Source: an uncultured Acidobacteriota bacterium (GTDB lineage: Bacteria; Acidobacteriota; Thermoanaerobaculia; Multivoradales; SZUA-115). Taken from it: a stretch of DNA of 64,000 nt. The stretch spans positions 480,001-544,000 of the forward strand of contig CAWDVR010000005.1 of NCBI GenBank assembly GCA_963805975.1, read 5' to 3'. The notes under the pieces are model-generated. The model did no database searches and was not told where the DNA came from. It worked only from the letters and a program-made list of their open reading frames with translations. The translations under genes were made by a program, and so were the position numbers. Of this stretch, positions 5,190 to 39,152 are shown one piece after another. How positions within the stretch are numbered: the first letter of the stretch is position 1; each line of letters begins with the position of its first letter.

Positions 5190-6761
5190 TCAGCTCCAAC
5201 CGCCGCCCCGCAGGGACTCGCGCCGGGCCGTCTGCCGCCAGCCGGCGCGGCGGGCGCCCGCCTCCGGCTTGCCGCTCGCCTCGGCCCCTGCCGCCCCGAC
5301 CCCGGCCCGGACCGCCTCCCGTTGGTGGACGAGAGCGGCGGCGATCACCGCGAGGTCCGCGAACGGCATCTCGGCCGGCGGCCGGAGCTCACCGGCCGCG
5401 AGCTTCCTGTCCAGCATGCCGATGTCGAGGTTGCCGGCGAGGAAGTCCGGGTCTTCGAGCAGAGCGAGGTAGAGCGGCGCCGTGGTGCGGATGCCCTCGA
5501 CCCGCAGCTCGAGGAGCGCGCGCTTGAGCCGCGCCAGCGCCTCTCGCCGGTCCGCGCCCCAGACGATGAGCTTGGCGAGCATCGGGTCGTAGTGGATCGA
5601 GACCTCGGCGCCCTCGTAGACGCCGCAGTCGTTCCTCACGCCGGGCCCCTCGGGCAGGCGGAGCACGGTGAGCCGTCCCGGCGACGGCGCAAAGCGCTGG
5701 TACGGGTCCTCGGCGTAGAGCCGCACCTCGACGGCGTGGCCGCGCGGCTCGACGGTGTCGAGCCACGCCGGCAGCGGCTCGCCCTCGGCGATCCGGATCT
5801 GTGCCGTCACCAGGTCGAGGCCGGTCACCAGCTCGGTCACCGGGTGCTCCACCTGGAGGCGGGTGTTCATCTCGAGGAAGTAGAACTCGCCGCTCTCGGC
5901 GAGGAGGAACTCGCAGGTGCCGGCGTTGGCGTAGCCCACCGCGGCGGCGGCGCGCACCGCGGCCTCGCCCATGGCGCGGCGCAGCTCGGGCGACACGACG
6001 GGCGACGGCGCTTCCTCCACCACCTTCTGGTGGCGGCGCTGGAGCGAGCACTCGCGCTCGCCCAAGGACACCACCTTGCCGTACTCGTCGCCGAGCACCT
6101 GGATCTCGACGTGCCGGGGTCGGTCGATGAGCTTCTCCAGGTACACGGCGTCGTCGCCGAAGCTCGCCAGGGCCTCGGAGCGCGCGGCGCGGAAGGCGCT
6201 CGCCAGGTCGTCCTCGCCCGCCACGGCCCGCATCCCCTTGCCGCCACCGCCCGCCGCCGCCTTGAGCATCACGGGATAGCCGATCGTCTCCGCCGCCGCC
6301 CGCGCCGATTCGAGCTCGGGCAGCGGGTCGCGCCCGCCGGGTACCACCGGCACGCCGGCGTCGATCATCCGCCGCCGGCTCTCGACCTTGGAGCCCATGG
6401 CGTCCATGGCCTCGGGCGAGGGGCCGATGAAGGTGACCCCGGCGTCGCGGCACAGGCGGGCGAAGTGCGGGCGCTCCGAGAGGAAGCCGTAGCCGGGATG
6501 GATGGCGTCCGCGCCGATCGCGACCGCCAGCTCGACGATGGCCTCGGCCTTCAGATAGCTCTCGCGCGACGCGGCAGGGCCGATGCGGTGCGCCTCGTCC
6601 GCCAGGAGCACCGGCAGGCCGGCGCGGTCGGGGTCCGAGTAGACGACGGCGGCGCGCTTGCCGAGATCGTGCAGCGCGCGGATGATGCGCACCGCGATCT
6701 CACCGCGGTTGGCGATCAGAACCTTGTGAATCGGCCGGTGGAACGGCTCTTTCGCGGGCAT
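5190..6761 (-). CDS. accC: Biotin carboxylase subunit (acetyl/propionyl-CoA carboxylase)
   Basis: KVLIANRGEIA, HPGYGFLSE, GGGGKGMR, ERECSLQRRHQK, FLEMNTRLQVEHPVTE, YDPMLAKLI. Confidence 0.93.
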   Translation of the reverse strand: MPAKEPFHRPIHKVLIANRGEIAVRIIRALHDLGKRAAVVYSDPDRAGLPVLLADEAHRIGPAASRESYLKAEAIVELAVAIGADAIHPGYGFLSERPHFARLCRDAGVTFIGPSPEAMDAMGSKVESRRRMIDAGVPVVPGGRDPLPELESARAAAETIGYPVMLKAAAGGGGKGMRAVAGEDDLASAFRAARSEALASFGDDAVYLEKLIDRPRHVEIQVLGDEYGKVVSLGERECSLQRRHQKVVEEAPSPVVSPELRRAMGEAAVRAAAAVGYANAGTCEFLLAESGEFYFLEMNTRLQVEHPVTELVTGLDLVTAQIRIAEGEPLPAWLDTVEPRGHAVEVRLYAEDPYQRFAPSPGRLTVLRLPEGPGVRNDCGVYEGAEVSIHYDPMLAKLIVWGADRREALARLKRALLELRVEGIRTTAPLYLALLEDPDFLAGNLDIGMLDRKLAAGELRPPAEMPFADLAVIAAALVHQREAVRAGVGAAGAEASGKPEAGARRAGWRQTARRESLRGGGWS

Positions 6762-9027
6762 GCGAGGGCGGGAGTCTAACCCACCGCTCGCGAGGGCGAC
6801 TCTCCCGCTGCGGTGCTCGAGCTCCCTGGCGGGCGGCCTGCGCTCCTCGCGGGAGAGTCGCCCTCGCGCCCCGCGTCGATCGACGAGCCGAGGATCTGGC
6901 AGCCGGCCGCCAGAGCGCCACCAACCCGAGCCCCAGCCACGCCAGCGTCGAGAGCGGCAGCGTCCAGAGGAGCGGCCGGCGATCGACCTCGACCTCCACA
7001 CGGTGCCGGCCGGCCGGTACTTCGACGCCCAGCAGATAGAAGTTGGCGACCACGGTGCGGGCGGGCTCGCCGTCGATCGTCGCTCTCCAGAGGGGCAGAA
7101 AGGCGCGCCGCAGCACGAGGAGCCCGCCGCGCTCGGAGTTGGCCTCGGCCGTCAGCCGTTCCGCTTCGTTGACCAGTACCTTCACCTCGCCCGGCGGGCC
7201 GTCGAGCCCCGCTCCTGAGCCGAGCGCCACGGCCTCCGTGCGCGGGTCGAAGGTGGGATCGGTGAGCCGCCGGAAGAAACCATCCGGGTCCGCGGCACGC
7301 GAGACCTTGCCCAGGAGCTGCGCCTCGCCGAGCGCGCCGGCGATCTCGTAGAGGTGGAGCGACTGGCCGAAGCTCGGCCAGGTGGCGTCCAGCCGCGCGG
7401 CCCCGGCCAGCTCCGCGGGCAAGGTCCGGTTGAGCAGCAGGCGGTCCACGCCGGTCGCTTTGAGCAGCGCCAGGCGCTCGCGGTCCGGAGAGCCGGCCAC
7501 CGCGGCCTGGGCGACCCGGCTCCAGAACGAGTCCAGCCCCTCGGGCGAGGCGTTGAACGCGAAGCGGCGTTGGAAGAGAGGACCGGTCGCCGGGTAGAGC
7601 TCGTAGAGAGCGCGGCGCGCGAGCCACAGGGACTGGAGCTCCGGGAAGCGGCCGGACGCGAGCGGTGACGGCCCGAACAGGCCGCCGGCGCCGCCGTGGA
7701 CGACCACCGAGGTCTTGGGAACGCGGTCGAGCACCAGCGGCGGCAGCTCGTAGGGCAGCGCGGCGTCCGTGGCGTAGAGCGGCGCCAGCACCCAGAGCTG
7801 GGCAGCGGCGTGAACAGCCAGCAACACCGCTCCCCACACCGCCGCCCGGCTCGCTCCGAGGCGCCTCACGACCACCGCTTCCGGCTGCACGAAGAGCCGC
7901 TCGAAGCCCAGCCCGGCGAGCACCGAGGCGCCGATCCCTACGGCGAGGAAGAGCTTCACCGGGTAGCGCAGGCCCGGCAGCGCGAAGGCCCACTCGGCCA
8001 GAGGATTGTGGCGGCCGAGCGCGAAGAACAGGCCCACGGCGATGGCGCCGAGCGCCCAGCGGGCGGCGCTCCACCGCCAGCGGGCGCCCAAGGCCGTGAG
8101 CGCCAGCGCGAAGAGGCCCGGCGCGAGCGAGAAGTAGAAGGGTGGCGAGCCGCCGTAGAAGCGGTGTGCGGAGAGGCCGCCCTCACCCAGGAGGTCCGGC
8201 CGGCCGAAGCAGAGCGGCACCAGGATCTCGAGCGCCTGGCGCGGATCGAAGCTCGCGGCCGTGGCGGCGGCCAGCGAGTAGCCGTAGGCGGCGCGGAACG
8301 AGCCGGGGACGATGCGGGCCAGCTCCACGAGCTGCGGCAACGCGGCGAGCGTGCCGAGGGCGAGCGCGGCGGCGAGCGCCCCGGACACTCTCCGCCAGCG
8401 CGGGCCCTCCTCCCGCAACCGGACGGCCACCGCCGAGGCGGCGAGGAGCAGCGCGAGACCTGCCAGCATCGGATCGCCGGCCAGGAGCAGCAGCGCCCAG
8501 AGCGCACCGGCGGCGGCGAGATGGAGCCTCCGCCGGTCACCTACCAATCCCAGGCAGGCGGCCACGAACGCCGGCGCCAGGGTCACGCCGGAGACCGCGT
8601 TGTAGAGGTTGAGCTGCGAGAGGTAATAGCCGGAAAAGGCCCACGCCACGCCGGCCGCCCAGGAAGCCCGCCGCGACAGGCCCCAGGCCCTCCCCAGCCA
8701 AAACATCGCCGGCGCGGCCAGCAGCCAGTGCAGCCAGAAGTGGGCGTTGAGGGCCCAGAGCGAGCCACGGGCCAGGAGAAAGTTGTCCGGGTAGAGCGGA
8801 GCGGCGTTGAGGTTCCCGGCGAGCGGCTGGCCGAGCCCGCGGTAGGGGTCGATCAGCGGCAGCCGGCCCTCGGCCATCGCCTGGCCCTGGGCCGCCTTCA
8901 TCGGCAGGTGGGTGACGAAGACGTCGCGCAGGAAGAGCGTGTCGCTGCCACGGGCGAGCGGAAAGATCACCCACGCCAGCATGGCGAGCGGCGGGACGAC
9001 GTAGAGCAGGAGCCGGCGGAGGTTCAT
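6700..9027 (-). CDS. YfhO-like polytopic membrane protein (putative GT-C glycosyltransferase)
   Basis: N-terminal LRD...PLIDPY..GQPL.GN...LYP motif, many TM helices, and C-terminal W.ATIDG...AN..LLGVEVPAGRHRVE followed by a TM helix. Confidence 0.75.
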   Translation of the reverse strand: MNLRRLLLYVVPPLAMLAWVIFPLARGSDTLFLRDVFVTHLPMKAAQGQAMAEGRLPLIDPYRGLGQPLAGNLNAAPLYPDNFLLARGSLWALNAHFWLHWLLAAPAMFWLGRAWGLSRRASWAAGVAWAFSGYYLSQLNLYNAVSGVTLAPAFVAACLGLVGDRRRLHLAAAGALWALLLLAGDPMLAGLALLLAASAVAVRLREEGPRWRRVSGALAAALALGTLAALPQLVELARIVPGSFRAAYGYSLAAATAASFDPRQALEILVPLCFGRPDLLGEGGLSAHRFYGGSPPFYFSLAPGLFALALTALGARWRWSAARWALGAIAVGLFFALGRHNPLAEWAFALPGLRYPVKLFLAVGIGASVLAGLGFERLFVQPEAVVVRRLGASRAAVWGAVLLAVHAAAQLWVLAPLYATDAALPYELPPLVLDRVPKTSVVVHGGAGGLFGPSPLASGRFPELQSLWLARRALYELYPATGPLFQRRFAFNASPEGLDSFWSRVAQAAVAGSPDRERLALLKATGVDRLLLNRTLPAELAGAARLDATWPSFGQSLHLYEIAGALGEAQLLGKVSRAADPDGFFRRLTDPTFDPRTEAVALGSGAGLDGPPGEVKVLVNEAERLTAEANSERGGLLVLRRAFLPLWRATIDGEPARTVVANFYLLGVEVPAGRHRVEVEVDRRPLLWTLPLSTLAWLGLGLVALWRPAARSSARRSTRGARATLPRGAQAARQGARAPQRESRPRERWVRLPPSHARERAVPPADSQGSDRQPR
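6789..6868. repeat. Hairpin element copy 1: perfect 20-bp inverted arms around a 40-nt conserved core
   Basis: Arms 6789-6808 (CGCGAGGGCGACTCTCCCGC) and 6849-6868. Core 6809-6848 is 39/40 identical to 36908-36947. Confidence 0.9.
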
Positions 9028-33166: not shown

Positions 33167-36100
33167 TCAAGCGTCTGGCTCGGTCACCAAGCTCTCCACG
33201 CGATAGCTCGCCTCGGCCGCTGCGACCGAGAGGGCCTGGGCGGCTGCCCGGATCTCGTCGATCCGCTCCGAGCTCGGGCCCTCGACGGCTGCCCAAGTGA
33301 GCAGGCGCTCGAAGGACTCTCGGTGGAAGTAGGTCCAGCCCTCGAAGCGGTTGAGGCGCAGGGCGAGGCGCATGTCCGGCTCGCCGAACCATGCCGACCA
33401 GGCCGCCGGTGCGCTCACTCGAAGGGGCGGCAGAAGACCGGCGACCAGCACCTTGAGCTCGAGCAGGGCATCGCGGGCCGGCTCCTCGCCGGCTCCCAAG
33501 CCCTGGAACGAGGCGAGGAGCTGCTTGCCGAGCAGCAGGTCGTCGAGCAGGTCGCGGGACGATACGACGGTGCCGGCGATCGCGGGAACCTCACCCAGGC
33601 GGCGGAGGAGGAACCACGCGTAGAGCACCGCCAGCGCGGGTACGGCTCCGTCGGCCGGTTCGGCGGTGAGAAAAGCGCGAGGGTCGAAGTCAGCCTGCAT
33701 CTCGGCTGCCTCTGGGGCACCTTCGGCGAGGATCGGCGCCTCCTCTTCCTCCAGGTCCGAGGCCGGTGAGGCGAGCCACGCGACCACGGCCTCCAGGTCC
33801 AGGCGAGCGGCGCGGGCGAGACCGGCGAGCCCTTCAGAATCGGCCGGCGGCTCGGCGTTCGCCGGCTCCGCCGAGTTGAGCGCCTCGGTTGCCCCCTCGC
33901 TCGCCCCCTCGCTCTCACGGTGCCGCTCGAGCGCCTGGAGGAAGGCGAGGAGATGCTCCTCCACCTCGGCGAGCACCGCTACCAAGGGCTCGGCCGGGGC
34001 ACGCGAGAGGGCGGCGTCGAGGAAGCGATGGACGAGCTCCGGCTCGATCAGGGTGCGGAACGGCCCGAGCACCGCTTCGAGCGTGGGCTCGAGCAGGGCC
34101 TCGGCGAGGCTCGGCACCCCGCGCCCGGCGAGCGCCGCGGCGAGCGCGGCCCAGCGGCCGTCCAAGTCCTCGAAGATCGCCTCGAAGTCGAGAAAGACGT
34201 GGCATCCGTAGCCGCCGAGCGCCAGGAGCAGCCCGGCGCTCACGATCTCGCGCGGATCGAAGAGGTGCTCGAAGCCGGTCACGGCGTCGCGGCAGGAGAG
34301 GAGCAGCGGGCGCCTGTCCTCCGGGTCCGGTTCCTCGAGGCCCAACGTGTGCGCGAGCGTCTCCCAGCGCAGGTGCGGCCGCTCGGCGCCTTCCACTTTG
34401 AAGGCGATCGGCACCGAGCGGCGCAGGCGCCCGCTGGTCGTGCCCGGCCGGTTGTGGAAGACGACCAGGGCCCGCTCCTCGCCCAGCCGGTTGGCGTAGG
34501 CGAAGACGTCCTCGTCCACCACGCCGAGGGACTTCTCGAAATCGAAGAGCACGAAGCTAAGGGCGCCGGCGAAGAGCCGCCGCCGCTCGAGGAGCGGCAC
34601 GATCTGGCGCTCGTGGCGGGCCACGATCCAGGGGTCCGGCCGCTCGTCGCGGTAGGCGCGCGCGTACTCCATGCCGTAGCGCTCGACGAAGCCCTCGATC
34701 TGGCCGTGACCGAACATCGGCAGGCCCGGCAGGGTGGCGAGGAGGGTGGCGGCGCCGAAGTACTTGTCGCCACTCCCGAACTGGTCGATCGCCGTGCGCT
34801 CGTCCGGGTTGCTCATGAAGTTGACGTACCGTTGGAGGATTCCCGGCTCGAAGGCGAGGACGTTCTTGATCGCCTTGCGGTAGTCGGCATTGCGCTCGTC
34901 GCGAAGCAGGATCATGAACGCGCTGTTGTACACGCGGTGCATGCCGAGCGAGCGCACGAAGTAGGTTTCCATGAGCCAGAACGCCTCGGCCAGGAGCAGC
35001 GTGTCCGGCGCCTCCAGGGCCACGCGGTCCACCACCTCGCGGAAGAACTCGACCGGCATCCGGCGGTCGAACTCCTCCTCGGACAGGCCGTGCTCGGAGC
35101 GCGAGGGGATGTCGCCGCCGCTCCCCGGCGGCGGGTACCACAGCCGCCGCACGTGGCGGCGGGCGAGGGTCATGGCGGCGTCGAAGCGGATGACGGGGAA
35201 GCGCCGCGCGACGTCGAGGATGGTCTCGAGCACCGCCTCGCGCACCTCCGGCTGCAAGTAGTCGAGCTGCGCCGTGTCGTTCCACGGCGTCGAGGTGCCG
35301 TCGTTGCCGTGGTAGAGGTAGGCGATCTCTTCTTGGACGCGGTCCACCCGCTGGAAGACCACGGCGGCGTCCGTGCGGTCGTAGTAGTGGTCCTCGAGGT
35401 AGATGCCCACGTCCGGGTCGGGTGAGAGGTCCGGGCCGCCGAAGGTGTAGGCCCGAAACGGCGGCTCTGGGACCTGGAGGAAGCGCTCCGGATGCTCGAG
35501 CACCCACTCGGAGTCGATGCCGAAGTGGTTCGGCACCATGTCGCAGGCGAGGCGGAGGCCGTGCTTCAGCGCCTGCCGGCGCAGCTCGTCGAGGGCCTCC
35601 TCGCCGCCCAGCTCGGCGGCGATGGTGTAGGAGTCCACGGCGTAGGCCGAGGCCGCCGCCTCCGGGTTGCCCGTCGCCTGCTTGATCTGCCGCGAGGCGG
35701 CGCTCCTCTGCCAGAGGCCGATCAGCCACAGGCCGGTGAAGCCGCGTCGGGCCAGGAGCTCGAGCTCGCTCTCCGGGATCTCGTCGAGGCGGGTGATCGG
35801 CCGGCCGTGCGCGACCGAGAGCTGCGCCAGCCAGACCAGCGTGTTCTTGGCCATCAGCACCAGCCGCGGCATCCAGTCGAGGTCAGGGCTGAACTGTTCG
35901 GGGCCTTCGGGCTCGGGCTCCGCCTCCGGCACCTCGACCGGCCCCGGCCCCGGCGGGAAGACCGGCCGCTCCTCCTCGCGCAGCAGGTCGGCGGCGCGGA
36001 GCTGCCGTGCGGCCTGCGGCCCGGGCGGAGGCGGGGGTGCGTACTCCCGGGTGAGCAGGCGGAGCTGGCCGGAGAGCGATCGCGGTTCCTCGATGGCCGG

Positions 36101-36832
36101 CGCCTGGAGCGCCTCGAACAGGCTGCGGCGCTCCTCCGGCGGCGAGGTGGCGGTCGGCGCTTCGGGGTAGGCCGGCCGGTCGGCCAGGAACTCCTCGAGC
36201 GCGGTGATCACCTCCGGGTAGGCCGTCTCGCGCCGCAGCACGCCGTCGTCGAACAGCTCGCGGAAGGGCGCAAAGGCCGGGCTCGAGTTGGCGAGCCAGA
36301 GGATCACCAGCTCCTCGATCAGGATCTCGCGGTGGCTGCGGCCGCCGGTCTCGGCGGCGAGGTAGTCCTCGAGGGTAGCCTCGCCCGTCCACACCGCGAG
36401 CGGCGGGAACTCGCGCGCGAAAGCGAGGAGCGTCGCCTCCACGCGCTCGGGCCCCAGGCGATCGCCGATCCAGGCGAGGGCCTCCGCGAGCACGCCGCCG
36501 TCCACCTCCCGCCGGTAGTGCTCGACCATGGAGTGCAGCAGCTCGTGGACCAGGCCCAGGGCGTAGATGCGGGCCGGGGTGACGGCGAGGGCGAGGTCGC
36601 GGTCGACCTCCGAGAGCTCCGTGGCCAGCCGGTCCGCCAGGCGCCGCGCCGCCGCCACGTCCGCGAACACGGCGCCGCCGGCGAGCGAGAAGAGAGAGGA
36701 GTCGAGCCCGAAGCGCTCGCGGGCGCGGCGGGAGACGTGGAGGTCGAGACGGGGCGATCCGTGAGGAGGCGGGCCGCTGCTCGAGGTCAGCCTGATGCGA
36801 GGCAGCCAGCGGGCGGTGAGCGGCACGGTCAT
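33167..36832 (-). CDS. Large GH13 alpha-amylase-family protein
   Basis: LWLIGLW, SAYAV..Y, LACDMVPNH, WNDTAQL, IRFDAAM (nucleophile), LLAEAFW (acid/base), MSNPDE. Confidence 0.88.
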   Translation of the reverse strand: MTVPLTARWLPRIRLTSSSGPPPHGSPRLDLHVSRRARERFGLDSSLFSLAGGAVFADVAAARRLADRLATELSEVDRDLALAVTPARIYALGLVHELLHSMVEHYRREVDGGVLAEALAWIGDRLGPERVEATLLAFAREFPPLAVWTGEATLEDYLAAETGGRSHREILIEELVILWLANSSPAFAPFRELFDDGVLRRETAYPEVITALEEFLADRPAYPEAPTATSPPEERRSLFEALQAPAIEEPRSLSGQLRLLTREYAPPPPPGPQAARQLRAADLLREEERPVFPPGPGPVEVPEAEPEPEGPEQFSPDLDWMPRLVLMAKNTLVWLAQLSVAHGRPITRLDEIPESELELLARRGFTGLWLIGLWQRSAASRQIKQATGNPEAAASAYAVDSYTIAAELGGEEALDELRRQALKHGLRLACDMVPNHFGIDSEWVLEHPERFLQVPEPPFRAYTFGGPDLSPDPDVGIYLEDHYYDRTDAAVVFQRVDRVQEEIAYLYHGNDGTSTPWNDTAQLDYLQPEVREAVLETILDVARRFPVIRFDAAMTLARRHVRRLWYPPPGSGGDIPSRSEHGLSEEEFDRRMPVEFFREVVDRVALEAPDTLLLAEAFWLMETYFVRSLGMHRVYNSAFMILLRDERNADYRKAIKNVLAFEPGILQRYVNFMSNPDERTAIDQFGSGDKYFGAATLLATLPGLPMFGHGQIEGFVERYGMEYARAYRDERPDPWIVARHERQIVPLLERRRLFAGALSFVLFDFEKSLGVVDEDVFAYANRLGEERALVVFHNRPGTTSGRLRRSVPIAFKVEGAERPHLRWETLAHTLGLEEPDPEDRRPLLLSCRDAVTGFEHLFDPREIVSAGLLLALGGYGCHVFLDFEAIFEDLDGRWAALAAALAGRGVPSLAEALLEPTLEAVLGPFRTLIEPELVHRFLDAALSRAPAEPLVAVLAEVEEHLLAFLQALERHRESEGASEGATEALNSAEPANAEPPADSEGLAGLARAARLDLEAVVAWLASPASDLEEEEAPILAEGAPEAAEMQADFDPRAFLTAEPADGAVPALAVLYAWFLLRRLGEVPAIAGTVVSSRDLLDDLLLGKQLLASFQGLGAGEEPARDALLELKVLVAGLLPPLRVSAPAAWSAWFGEPDMRLALRLNRFEGWTYFHRESFERLLTWAAVEGPSSERIDEIRAAAQALSVAAAEASYRVESLVTEPDA

Positions 36833-36879: not shown

Positions 36880-36975
36880 CGAGGTGCGAGTGCCCCGAGT
36901 GTCCTGGTCCGGTGCTCGAGCTCCCTGGCGGGCGGCCTGCGCTCCTCCCAGGACACTCGGGGCACTCGCACCTCG
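36880..36975. repeat. Hairpin element copy 2: perfect 28-bp inverted arms around the same 40-nt core
   Basis: Arms 36880-36907 (CGAGGTGCGAGTGCCCCGAGTGTCCTGG) and 36948-36975; core 36908-36947. Confidence 0.9.
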
Positions 36976-37065: not shown

Positions 37066-38118
37066 ATGGCTTCCACTCATATCGGCATCGGCATCCAAGG
37101 GTTCGGCCGCATCGGCCGGAGCCTGCTGCGCCTGCTCTACGAGCGCCATGCCGTAGAGGGGCGGGACGACCTGAGACTGCTCGCCATCGCCGATCCCGCC
37201 GATCCCAAGGCCCTCGCCTACCTCGTCCGCTTCGACACCCTGCTCGGGCGCTTCCCGGCCCCCGTCTCTCTCGATGGCAATGCTCTTCTGGTCGGCGGCC
37301 AGCCCATTCACGTCGCGAAGACGGACCAGCCCGGCCAGGTGCCGTGGGGCGAGCTGGGCGTCGACGTGGTGATCGAGGCCTCCTCCAGACCGCGGCGCCG
37401 CGCCGACCTCGAGCAGCACCTGGCGGCCGGCGCGAAACGGGTGATCCTCTGCTCGCCGCCCGCCGAGCCGCCGGACCTGACCGTGGTCGAGCCCTTGAAC
37501 GGCCACCTGCTCTCCCGCGAGCAGCGGATCGTCTCCAACGCCTCTTCCACCGCCCACTGCGCGGGGCCGGTGGCGAAGGTCCTCGCCGACGCCTTCGGCA
37601 TCGAGCGGCTGTTTCTCGCCACCGTCCACGCCTACACCGACCAGCAGCGGCTGGCCGACGTGCCGGAGAGCGACTGGCGCCGCGGGCGGGCGGCGGCCGA
37701 GAACGTGATCCCCCAGGAGACCAACGCCGGGGCGATGCTCGAAGAGCTGATCCCCGAGCTGGCCGGCCGGGTGACGGCGATGTCGATGAACGTGCCGGTG
37801 GCGAACGGCTCGCTGGTCGATCTCGTCTGCTGGCACCAGCGCGAGGTCACGGCCGGGGCGATCAACGAGGTTCTGCGCGCCGCCGCGGCGAGCGAACGCT
37901 GGCGCCGCGTGCTCGCCTTCGAGACCGAGCCCATCGTCTCCTCCGACGTGCTCGGAAGCTCCGCCTCCGCCGTCTTCGACTCGGAGGCCACCATGGTCCT
38001 CGGCGACCACGTGTCGAAGACCCTGGCCTGGTTCGACAATGCCAGCGGCTACGCGCGGCGCGTGCTGGAGCTGATCGAGCGTTTCGCCGCCCTGGACCGG
38101 GAGGGCGACACGCCGTGA
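37066..38118 (+). CDS. GAPDH-like protein lacking the catalytic cysteine
   Basis: GFGRIGR and HAYT are retained, but NASSTAHC replaces NASCTTNC. Confidence 0.85.
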   Translation: MASTHIGIGIQGFGRIGRSLLRLLYERHAVEGRDDLRLLAIADPADPKALAYLVRFDTLLGRFPAPVSLDGNALLVGGQPIHVAKTDQPGQVPWGELGVDVVIEASSRPRRRADLEQHLAAGAKRVILCSPPAEPPDLTVVEPLNGHLLSREQRIVSNASSTAHCAGPVAKVLADAFGIERLFLATVHAYTDQQRLADVPESDWRRGRAAAENVIPQETNAGAMLEELIPELAGRVTAMSMNVPVANGSLVDLVCWHQREVTAGAINEVLRAAAASERWRRVLAFETEPIVSSDVLGSSASAVFDSEATMVLGDHVSKTLAWFDNASGYARRVLELIERFAALDREGDTP

Positions 38119-39152
38119 GCGCGATCCGGATCGGCATCAACGGCTTCGGGCGCATCGGCCGGAGCGTCTTCCGTGTGCTGCACGAGGCGCGAGTCGGCCA
38201 CGGCCGCGACCGGGAAGAGGGCGCCCGGCTCGAGGTGGTGGCGATCAACGACCTGTACGAGAACGAGCAGCTCGCCTACCTCTTGGAGCACGACACGGTG
38301 ATGGGCCGCTTCGAGGGCGAGGTCGCGGCGGACGCCGAGTCGATGACCGTCGACGGCCGGCGCATCGAGATGACGGCCGAGAAAGACCCGGCGGCGATCC
38401 CGTGGAGCGCGCTGGGCGTCGACTTCGTGGTCGAGTGCACCGGCGTCTTTCGCACCCGCGAGGGCCTGGCGCGGCATCTCGCCGGCGGCGCGCGGAAGGT
38501 CGTCCTGACGGTGCCGGCCGAGGACGAGATCGACGCCATGATCGTGATCGGCGTCAACGAGCACACGCTGAGACCGGAGCACGCGCTGGTCTCGAACGCC
38601 TCCTGCACCACCAACTGCCTGTCGCCGATCGCCAAGATCCTCGACCAGGCGTTCGGCATCGAGGAAGGGCTCATCACCACCGTCCACGCCTACACCAACG
38701 ACCAGCGGCTGGCGGACGTGCCGCACAAGGACCTGCGCCGGAGCCGCGCGGCGGCGGAGAACGTGATCCCCACCACGACCGGCGCGGCGCGCGCCGTGGG
38801 CAAGGTGCTGCCCCACCTCGACGGCCGCCTGGACGGCATTGCCGTGCGCGTGCCGGTGCCGGACGGCTCGATCGTCGATCTCGTCTGCCGCGTGCGCGCC
38901 AGGCCCACCGCGGCGCAGGTCAACGCCGCCGTCCGCGCCGCCGCCGAAGGGCCGCTCGCGCGCATCGTCGAGTACAGCGAGACGCCGCTGGTGTCCTCCG
39001 ACGTGATCGGCAACCCGCACTCGTCGGTGTTCGACGCGCTCTCGACCCGCGCCACGGGCGACGGCTACCTGCGTGCCGTGGCCTGGTACGACAACGAGTG
39101 GGGCTACTCGAACCGGGTCGTGGACCTGCTCGCGCTGATGGCTAGAATGTAG
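38115..39152 (+). CDS. gap: Type I glyceraldehyde-3-phosphate dehydrogenase
   Basis: INGFGRIGR, SNASCTTNCL, HAYT, IPTTTGAA, RVP, WYDNEWGYSNR. GTGA overlap with the upstream gene. Confidence 0.95.
   Translation: MSAIRIGINGFGRIGRSVFRVLHEARVGHGRDREEGARLEVVAINDLYENEQLAYLLEHDTVMGRFEGEVAADAESMTVDGRRIEMTAEKDPAAIPWSALGVDFVVECTGVFRTREGLARHLAGGARKVVLTVPAEDEIDAMIVIGVNEHTLRPEHALVSNASCTTNCLSPIAKILDQAFGIEEGLITTVHAYTNDQRLADVPHKDLRRSRAAAENVIPTTTGAARAVGKVLPHLDGRLDGIAVRVPVPDGSIVDLVCRVRARPTAAQVNAAVRAAAEGPLARIVEYSETPLVSSDVIGNPHSSVFDALSTRATGDGYLRAVAWYDNEWGYSNRVVDLLALMARM

Follow-up and report, generated by a model that had tools for sequence, protein, structure and literature searches.

The two hairpins in the window belong to a family of 47 copies in the host genome, and the reading that we favour, with a probability of roughly 55 %, is that these are non-coding palindromes of the RPE/REP kind, with a G·A core that is likely read in single-stranded DNA and arms that are likely re-paired by template switching. 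On its purine strand the core would form a helix of G·A mismatches with two-fold symmetry, the likely feature recognised by a protein in single-stranded DNA, and the Watson-Crick arms would drift and then be re-paired by template switching during replication, which would also extend them into host DNA. Spread would proceed via a single-stranded intermediate and an enzyme acting in trans, located away from the copies examined and perhaps lost from the genome. A copy whose core had been overwritten to give a perfect palindrome would no longer spread, and this would account for the persistence of the core mismatches. We infer the function in DNA rather than RNA, the template switching and the spread by an enzyme in trans.

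The window, i.e. the whole stretch of 64,000 nucleotides that was analysed, is part of contig C5 of the host genome (G000; 5.36 Mb, 70 % GC). The two copies and their neighbouring genes are as follows:

5190-6761, minus strand: biotin carboxylase gene, its start 28 nt from copy 1
6700-9027, minus strand: ORF of 775 amino acids with hydrophobic stretches and no Pfam match, reading through copy 1
6789-6808: copy 1, arm of 20 bp, arm lineage A, perfect complement of 6849-6868
6809-6818, minus strand: copy 1, 3' half of the putative G·A module, GAGCACCGCA (module pattern and covariation)
6819-6838, minus strand: copy 1, inner hairpin of type A, variable within the family (folding and core comparison)
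6839-6848, minus strand: copy 1, 5' half of the putative G·A module, GAGGAGCGCA (module pattern and covariation)
6849-6868: copy 1, second arm of 20 bp, perfect complement of 6789-6808
33167-36832, minus strand: alpha-amylase-domain gene, divergent from the glyceraldehyde-3-phosphate dehydrogenase (GAPDH) gene across copy 2
36880-36907: copy 2, arm of 28 bp, arm lineage B, perfect complement of 36948-36975
36908-36947, minus strand: copy 2, core, with halves 36938-36947 and 36908-36917 around a type-A inner hairpin
36948-36975: copy 2, second arm of 28 bp, perfect complement of 36880-36907
37066-38118, plus strand: GAPDH gene

The initial annotation had reported two 40-nt cores identical at 39 of 40 positions, each closed by a perfect inverted repeat, and both statements were verified. 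The cores (6809-6848 and 36908-36947, 40 nt each) have a single mismatch, G/C at position 2, which is the predicted bulged N of the GNA motif described below, and the closing repeats are perfect over 20 bp in copy 1 and 28 bp in copy 2. Copy 1 had a folding z-score of -3.5 and copy 2 scores of -7.4/-7.9, and none of 200 shuffles was equally stable. The description of the core as an invariant 40-nt loop holds for its near-invariant 10-nt ends but not for its middle, 15-21 nt forming an inner hairpin that varies across the family, and the predicted fold indicates that the 'loop' is probably not a loop but a G·A helix. The stems, which had been called unrelated, do differ in lineage between the window copies, lineage A in copy 1 and lineage B in copy 2, so that they looked unrelated in this pair, but family-wide the arms fall into just these two lineages.

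At the copy-1 site, the compared genome G001 has a different palindrome pair, which may be called GTAG-like after the part of PMC3733652 available. The G001 orthologue of the 6700-9027 ORF ends right after the last hydrophobic stretch; the window ORF does not have the stop codon found in G001 and continues for approximately 65 extra codons via copy 1, 62 nt into the biotin carboxylase gene. Contigs aligned at copy 1 ended within the element. The copy-2 site is empty in G001. In contigs of runs X2, X4 (same sample) and X5, 89-149 other letters replace 244-285 at this site, and a contig from X1 has a 22-nt remnant resembling a core end. The GAPDH-like genes next to copy 2 are in tandem (37066-38118 and approximately 38120-39150), with DNA approximately 74 % identical over 216 nt.

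A genome-wide search for the core, as the initial annotation had proposed, identified five exact copies of the 40-mer and four near-exact ones (1-3 mismatches), and a profile built from 29 cores found the 47 family copies at E < 0.25 among 74 matches listed. Together with gain or loss at orthologous sites, this agrees with the suggestion of a non-autonomous repeat family. Both 10-nt ends are intact in 28 of the 47 copies and eroded in 19. A pattern specifying structure only had 30 matches in the genome, 27 of them with arms, none in the reversed genome and 1, 0 and 1 in three shuffles. The elements are 65-105 nt long, with arms of 12-33 bp and an inner hairpin (15-21 nt) of two main types. Read outward, the arms of a lineage have approximately 8-18 proximal letters in common and then become copy-specific. 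Type-A cores occur with both arm lineages, indicating that parts of the element recombine.

On the purine strand the core ends, GAGGAGCGCA and GAGCACCGCA, both have the form GA-NN-A-NN-GNA. The two halves are predicted to form a head-to-tail pairing around the inner hairpin, in shifted register, giving two Watson-Crick steps of 2 bp around an A·A, each side closed by GA opposite GNA, in which sheared G·A pairs would flank the bulged N. The pairing was assessed with a pattern in which the inner hairpin and the GA/GNA letters were fixed and the five middle letters of each half were left free. Letter 4 of the left half and letter 6 of the right half were Watson-Crick in all 29 matches from five betaproteobacterial genomes (18 A-T, 8 G-C, 2 C-G and 1 T-A) and in all 49 matches from four of five other genomes (45 G-C, 2 A-T and 2 C-G), i.e. 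78 of 78 were complementary in nine genomes, with all four pair types, and the reversed-pattern controls gave none. The genomes were chosen for having one G-C match and related copies were counted, so that the independent covariation events are far fewer than 78, perhaps eight or more. At left 6/right 4 the free-letter pattern gave one change to A-T and one broken pair. Of 30 copies in the host genome, 25 have G-C and 5 have C-G as the left 4/right 6 pair. Sheared G·A pairs are established in purine-strand folds of DNA, in mini-hairpins (PMC13037366) and in HSat3 (PMC11014236), as described in the parts of these papers available; the exact fold of the GA/GNA motif is a prediction. The conserved core is probably a structured recognition site, as had been proposed.

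Conservation in the arms is of pairing rather than of letters. Among 30 copies, 639 of 670 aligned arm columns were Watson-Crick, the remainder being 13 G·T, 5 A·C, 6 other mismatches and 7 gaps, so that approximately 95 % of columns are paired within a copy; between copies, identity was 47 % for the 15 proximal arm letters and 94 % for the module letters. This pattern appears to bear out the earlier idea that the arms are homogenised by a copying-like process. In an alignment of 12 copies, both sides had changed in 19 of 30 pairs, including 18 of 20 arm pairs, with a covariation score reached by none of 500 shuffles, the copies being related. At an orthologous site in two betaproteobacteria there were 18 differences in the stems and inner loop and none in the 20 module letters, with the pairing kept; the gene upstream of this site is also approximately 12 % diverged.

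In 12 of the 19 eroded copies the stem extends into the outer module, with the inner GCA/GA motif kept (read by eye); four of these 12 overwritten copies carry one common change and may represent a single event. At C2:88030 of the host genome, a 75-nt insert is in frame in the FtsX-domain gene and is absent from G001, G002, G003 and G006; this and the copy-2 site provide the empty sites that the initial annotation had suggested looking for. The 10 host bases on each side of the insert, which are codons, pair at 10 of 10 positions in the host genome and at 3 of 10 at the empty G001 site. With G001 at approximately 80 % identity, a target that was palindromic before the insertion is an alternative to arm growth. 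Taken together, the overwritten eroded copies, the betaproteobacterial orthologous site and C2:88030 favour templated copying over slow compensation.

Judged by their reading frames, three copies lie in frame inside genes, two in NRPS adenylation domains and one in the FtsX-domain gene, each with empty paralogues or orthologues, and in-frame copies are present in both orientations. Both NRPS copies are inserted at one and the same loop; a third paralogue has another repeat doublet there, likewise in frame. The NRPS loops (C5:214900-215330, 221540-222000 and 258660-259150; loci L445 and L446) thus hold in-frame inserts of two repeat families, with net inserts of approximately +93, +162 and +165 nt, and form an insertion hot spot within a biosynthetic cluster. 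What may be a short duplication at the NRPS slot belongs with the other repeat. Copies are also read through at the 3' ends of two ORFs, queG and the window ORF at copy 1. Two units of approximately 400 nt in G001 (L003 on C13 and L008 on C49) consist of two inverted element copies enclosing a CGTC-like REP doublet, and both are missing at the orthologous sites of the host genome.

The strict pattern was present in 5 of 40 relatives and in none of 300 genomes sampled from the phylum. It was found at a minimum of 120 loci in GTDB, the matches listed including Thermoleophilia, Betaproteobacteria, Bacillota, Chloroflexota, Deltaproteobacteria, Spirochaetota, Saccharibacteria, haloarchaea and a woesearchaeon, and at 122 or more loci in metagenomes, where the four closing inner pairs were present in 95 of 133 among the matches listed. 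The exact subtype-A pattern had no matches in JGI metagenomes, and BLAST searches of plasmids and phages gave nothing useful. Outside the genus, the module is mostly part of tandem arrays or of longer hairpins that contain additional G·A-rich segments, and 10 or more of 12 flanking pairs were formed in just 12 of 139 among the matches listed. Near-perfect straight arms are thus rare outside the genus, so that perfect arms are this lineage's variant; the possibility raised earlier, that other copies lack inverted arms, holds there in part, most copies lacking perfect arms; in the host genome 27 of the 30 pattern matches are armed. Tandem or nested arrays of whole and half module units were observed at L061-L063, L102, L117, L133 and L279, mostly in Thermoleophilia.

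Some of these distant occurrences would suit worn-down MITEs of a DDE transposon, IS21-like or IS1182-like, in which the module was a passenger, the termini were lost and the hairpin was left. At five metagenome loci (L267, L269, L318, L337 and L358) the module separates the istB stop codon of an IS21-like element from its terminal repeat, and in Paenibacillaceae, as in RPE-5, it is inside longer elements with constant A/T-rich ends. No IstA or IstB match was found in the host genome, however, and 29 copies had neither a constant terminus or conserved tag at the arm ends nor a target duplication above control (mean shared word 3.6 vs 3.0); there was none at C2:88030 either, where the in-frame insert is exactly the 75-nt hairpin. 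We regard such an origin as quite unlikely. The hairpin between istB and the terminal repeat of these IS21-like elements is long and G·A-rich.

Five strict matches were obtained in viral contigs, three of which were structured and intergenic and two of which did not qualify. In two contigs of 2.1 kb (L202 and L205) the module is located on the 5' side of a TAGTATTAC stem-loop, 113-118 nt away on the same strand, and its arms differ between the two. The sequence TAGTATTAC is taken by us to mark the virion strand in the Rep-encoding viral contigs; Rep was identified in L202 by Pfam and in L205 by two same-strand ORFs and similar sequence. An inovirus-like contig has the module downstream of a Zot-family gene, and a fourth ssDNA-virus contig has an A-T variant of the module between Rep and capsid. 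Around the origin of L202 (1-360) and L205 (1890-2148), hairpin loops including a GCGRAGC mini-hairpin are kept and their stems are changed. Other structured viral matches were in a large dsDNA virus and in host-type repeats. Most viral pattern matches were set aside as chance or coding, the inner hairpin being present in just 4 of 154, and AGTATTAC on the module strand of L460 was too short to count.

In each of the four ssDNA viruses the module is on the coding strand, as it would be if the fold acted in RNA, i.e. if transcribed hairpins with a G·A internal loop influenced the stability, processing or termination of mRNA, the stems being kept by selection at the RNA level. Because the viral genomes are one-directional, the module strand doubles as the mRNA strand, and the viruses do not separate DNA from RNA. 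The long stable stems and the scoring of RPE-5 as a structured repeat by RNAz (in the portion of PMC2267715 available) are in line with action in RNA, as is the excess of G·T over A·C among arm mismatches on the purine strand, although 13 to 5 is not significant (P = 0.096). The placement of the copies points the other way. In co-directional or coding contexts (hand-corrected), 13 copies were sense and 14 antisense to transcription, the in-frame copies face both ways, and 16 of the 40 intergenic copies are flanked by divergent genes. Outward TTGAC boxes follow 11 of 94 copy sides and inward ones 1 of 94; of 2368 upstream control windows, 107 have the box (P = 0.0035). This suggests that copies often abut a promoter from upstream. 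Searches with Rfam covariance models gave no matches in the window, in 16 loci, or at E ≤ 1 on copy 1, and no terminator-like site was found at copy 2. A role in RNA is accordingly considered unlikely.

Of the 47 copies overall, 7 are within called ORFs, 21 lie in gaps between tandem genes, 16 in divergent gaps and 3 in convergent ones. Intergenic space is shared as 35/53/12 % (divergent/tandem/convergent), close to the 16/21/3 copies, so an enrichment between divergent genes was dropped and the distribution gives no sign of a host function. No replication-strand bias of the copies was evident by eye.

The initial annotation had named an HUH or GIY-YIG nuclease as a possible partner and a copy next to a RAYT, TnpA or GIY-YIG gene as a sign of it, and neither was found. 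No Y1 transposase (PF01797) was detected in the host genome or in G001, and 29 Y1 loci of six relatives had no family copy. The one GIY-YIG match of the host genome, in a frame of 638 amino acids, is probably UvrC. In 99 frames flanking 45 copies there was no transposase or recurrent nuclease, with single RadC and NYN matches; 48 of the 99 had no NCBIfam match, so that a novel mobiliser is possible among them. Family matches in flanking frames include ADOP and an acidobacterial VWA family, which make an acidobacterial host likely. At the relatives' copies examined, 34 frames named no mobiliser, and all-against-all clustering of the neighbours gave just common genes and one IS21 group. Other repeats of the host genome were observed in passing: a CCCTCTCCC-type repeat with approximately 250 matches, which favours convergent gaps (23 vs 6), and two or more CGTC-like REP families, whose motifs match 83 and 75 times, with no stand-alone GIY-YIG or RAYT gene found. 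The one DUF559 gene of the genome, a stand-alone gene at C3:920185-920505 (L152), adjoins a CCCTCTCCC-type hairpin, i.e. a repeat other than the present one, and is a candidate mobiliser of that family.

A negative enzyme search is also what would be expected if there were no dedicated enzyme, the copies arising by gene conversion or repair-templated capture at fragile hairpins and the core being kept as conversion homology or as a site for a host protein. The recombined core types and arm lineages fit such an origin, as do slots that hold different repeat families in the host genome and G001 and in the paralogous NRPS domains. Conversion alone, however, leaves the cross-phylum covariation in shifted register unexplained, as well as the patchy spread, with 5 of 40 relatives and none of the phylum sample carrying the pattern, yet many distant phyla, and we therefore think it very unlikely. 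A broader and doubtful idea is that the GA-NN-A-NN-GNA duplex is an unrecognised, near-universal signal in single-stranded DNA for a conserved host protein (e.g. in priming, SSB exclusion or strand transfer), used by ssDNA viruses beside their origins and by repeats from RPE-5 to the present family as enzyme-free minimal elements, with arms rebuilt from local DNA. If true, it would unite many unrelated-looking 'species-specific' repeat families and provide a testable substrate for RPE mobility.

What is new is the recognition that the constant part is a G·A module which covaries and recurs in many phyla and in ssDNA viruses, accompanied by footprints of arm repair. How RPE-like palindromic repeats that encode no enzyme spread is an open question in the part of PMC2229807 available, and the 20-letter module is a candidate for the invariant part of many such families and of the four ssDNA viruses. 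Turnover of the stems, together with a core below the length that BLAST can find, explains why such repeats look lineage-specific in sequence searches. The specific fold predicted is testable with short oligonucleotides, and the natural footprints record arm repair and putative arm growth, codons included. If the module were merely a stable fold with no reader, the result would be a tidy, modest extension of RPE/REP biology.

No description of a cross-phylum module was found in the openly available literature searched, an earlier mention of the module or fold in Ogata 2002 or the Chou 2003 review being possible, and no match was seen in 12 of 19 supplements on Geobacter multicopy features. Sequence look-ups returned no comparable element. 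The closest likeness is to RPE-5 of Rickettsia, which in the part of the PMC2267715 supplement available has, by eye, a central TGCGGTGCTC...CTCCGCTCCTC module around an inner hairpin. Two of its entries from R. conorii, rco:7 and rco:25, match both 10-nt halves exactly and in the same order; among 42 of the 45 entries, by eye, approximately seven have an A-T compensatory version and three or more a G·T version. A match to a described REP or Rfam family, which the initial annotation had held against a new element, was thus obtained with the centre of RPE-5 but not with Rfam. Both families have approximately 45-55 palindromic copies and no mobiliser identified. RPE-5, however, is approximately 115 nt long with conserved outer arms and ends, whereas the present elements are 65-105 nt with hypervariable arms of 12-33 bp and no constant ends. 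RPE-1 to -3 insert in frame into genes (PMC10969869, PMC2229807 and PMC3767692, as far as these were available), and like such coding palindromes the present family has in-frame inserts in genes for conserved proteins. RPEs are described from Rickettsia and Wolbachia in the available part of PMC3767692, whereas the present host is GC-rich and likely acidobacterial.

Like REPs and REPINs, as presented in the available part of PMC3733652, the elements are short dispersed palindromes, mostly intergenic, with some inverted pairs and some intragenic copies, and they occupy insertion slots also used by REP-like doublets. They differ in that there is no terminal GTAG or CGTC tag, which in REPs adjoins a stem of 8-20 bp, and no RAYT in the genome, most copies are single, and the middle is conserved and the stems vary. 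Unlike MITEs, they have no terminal inverted repeats shared with a transposon, their arms are 47 % identical, and the genome has no IS21. Like the GCGNAGC mini-hairpins at phage G4, N4 and ssiA (PMC13037366) and the HSat3 guanine zipper (PMC11014236), in the parts of both papers available, the core is a purine strand predicted to fold with sheared G·A pairs flanking unpaired bases, and as with the G·A structures described there it occurs in non-coding regions of ssDNA replicons; the predicted structure here is instead an asymmetric GA/GNA internal motif, two-fold symmetric and inside a long stem.

Template switching is known as a corrector of imperfect inverted repeats (PMC5941160 and PMC8794818, in the parts available), and the multi-base compensatory changes, the perfection of stems and the putative growth of arms into flanks resemble the quasi-palindrome correction described there; in contrast, the mismatch-rich core of the present elements resists correction, in 28 of the 47 copies and across phyla. 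By its membership features, as judged from sequence, the family would be an RPE/REP-type non-autonomous palindrome with the core of RPE-5, outside RPE-5 itself, the tagged REPs and the MITEs.
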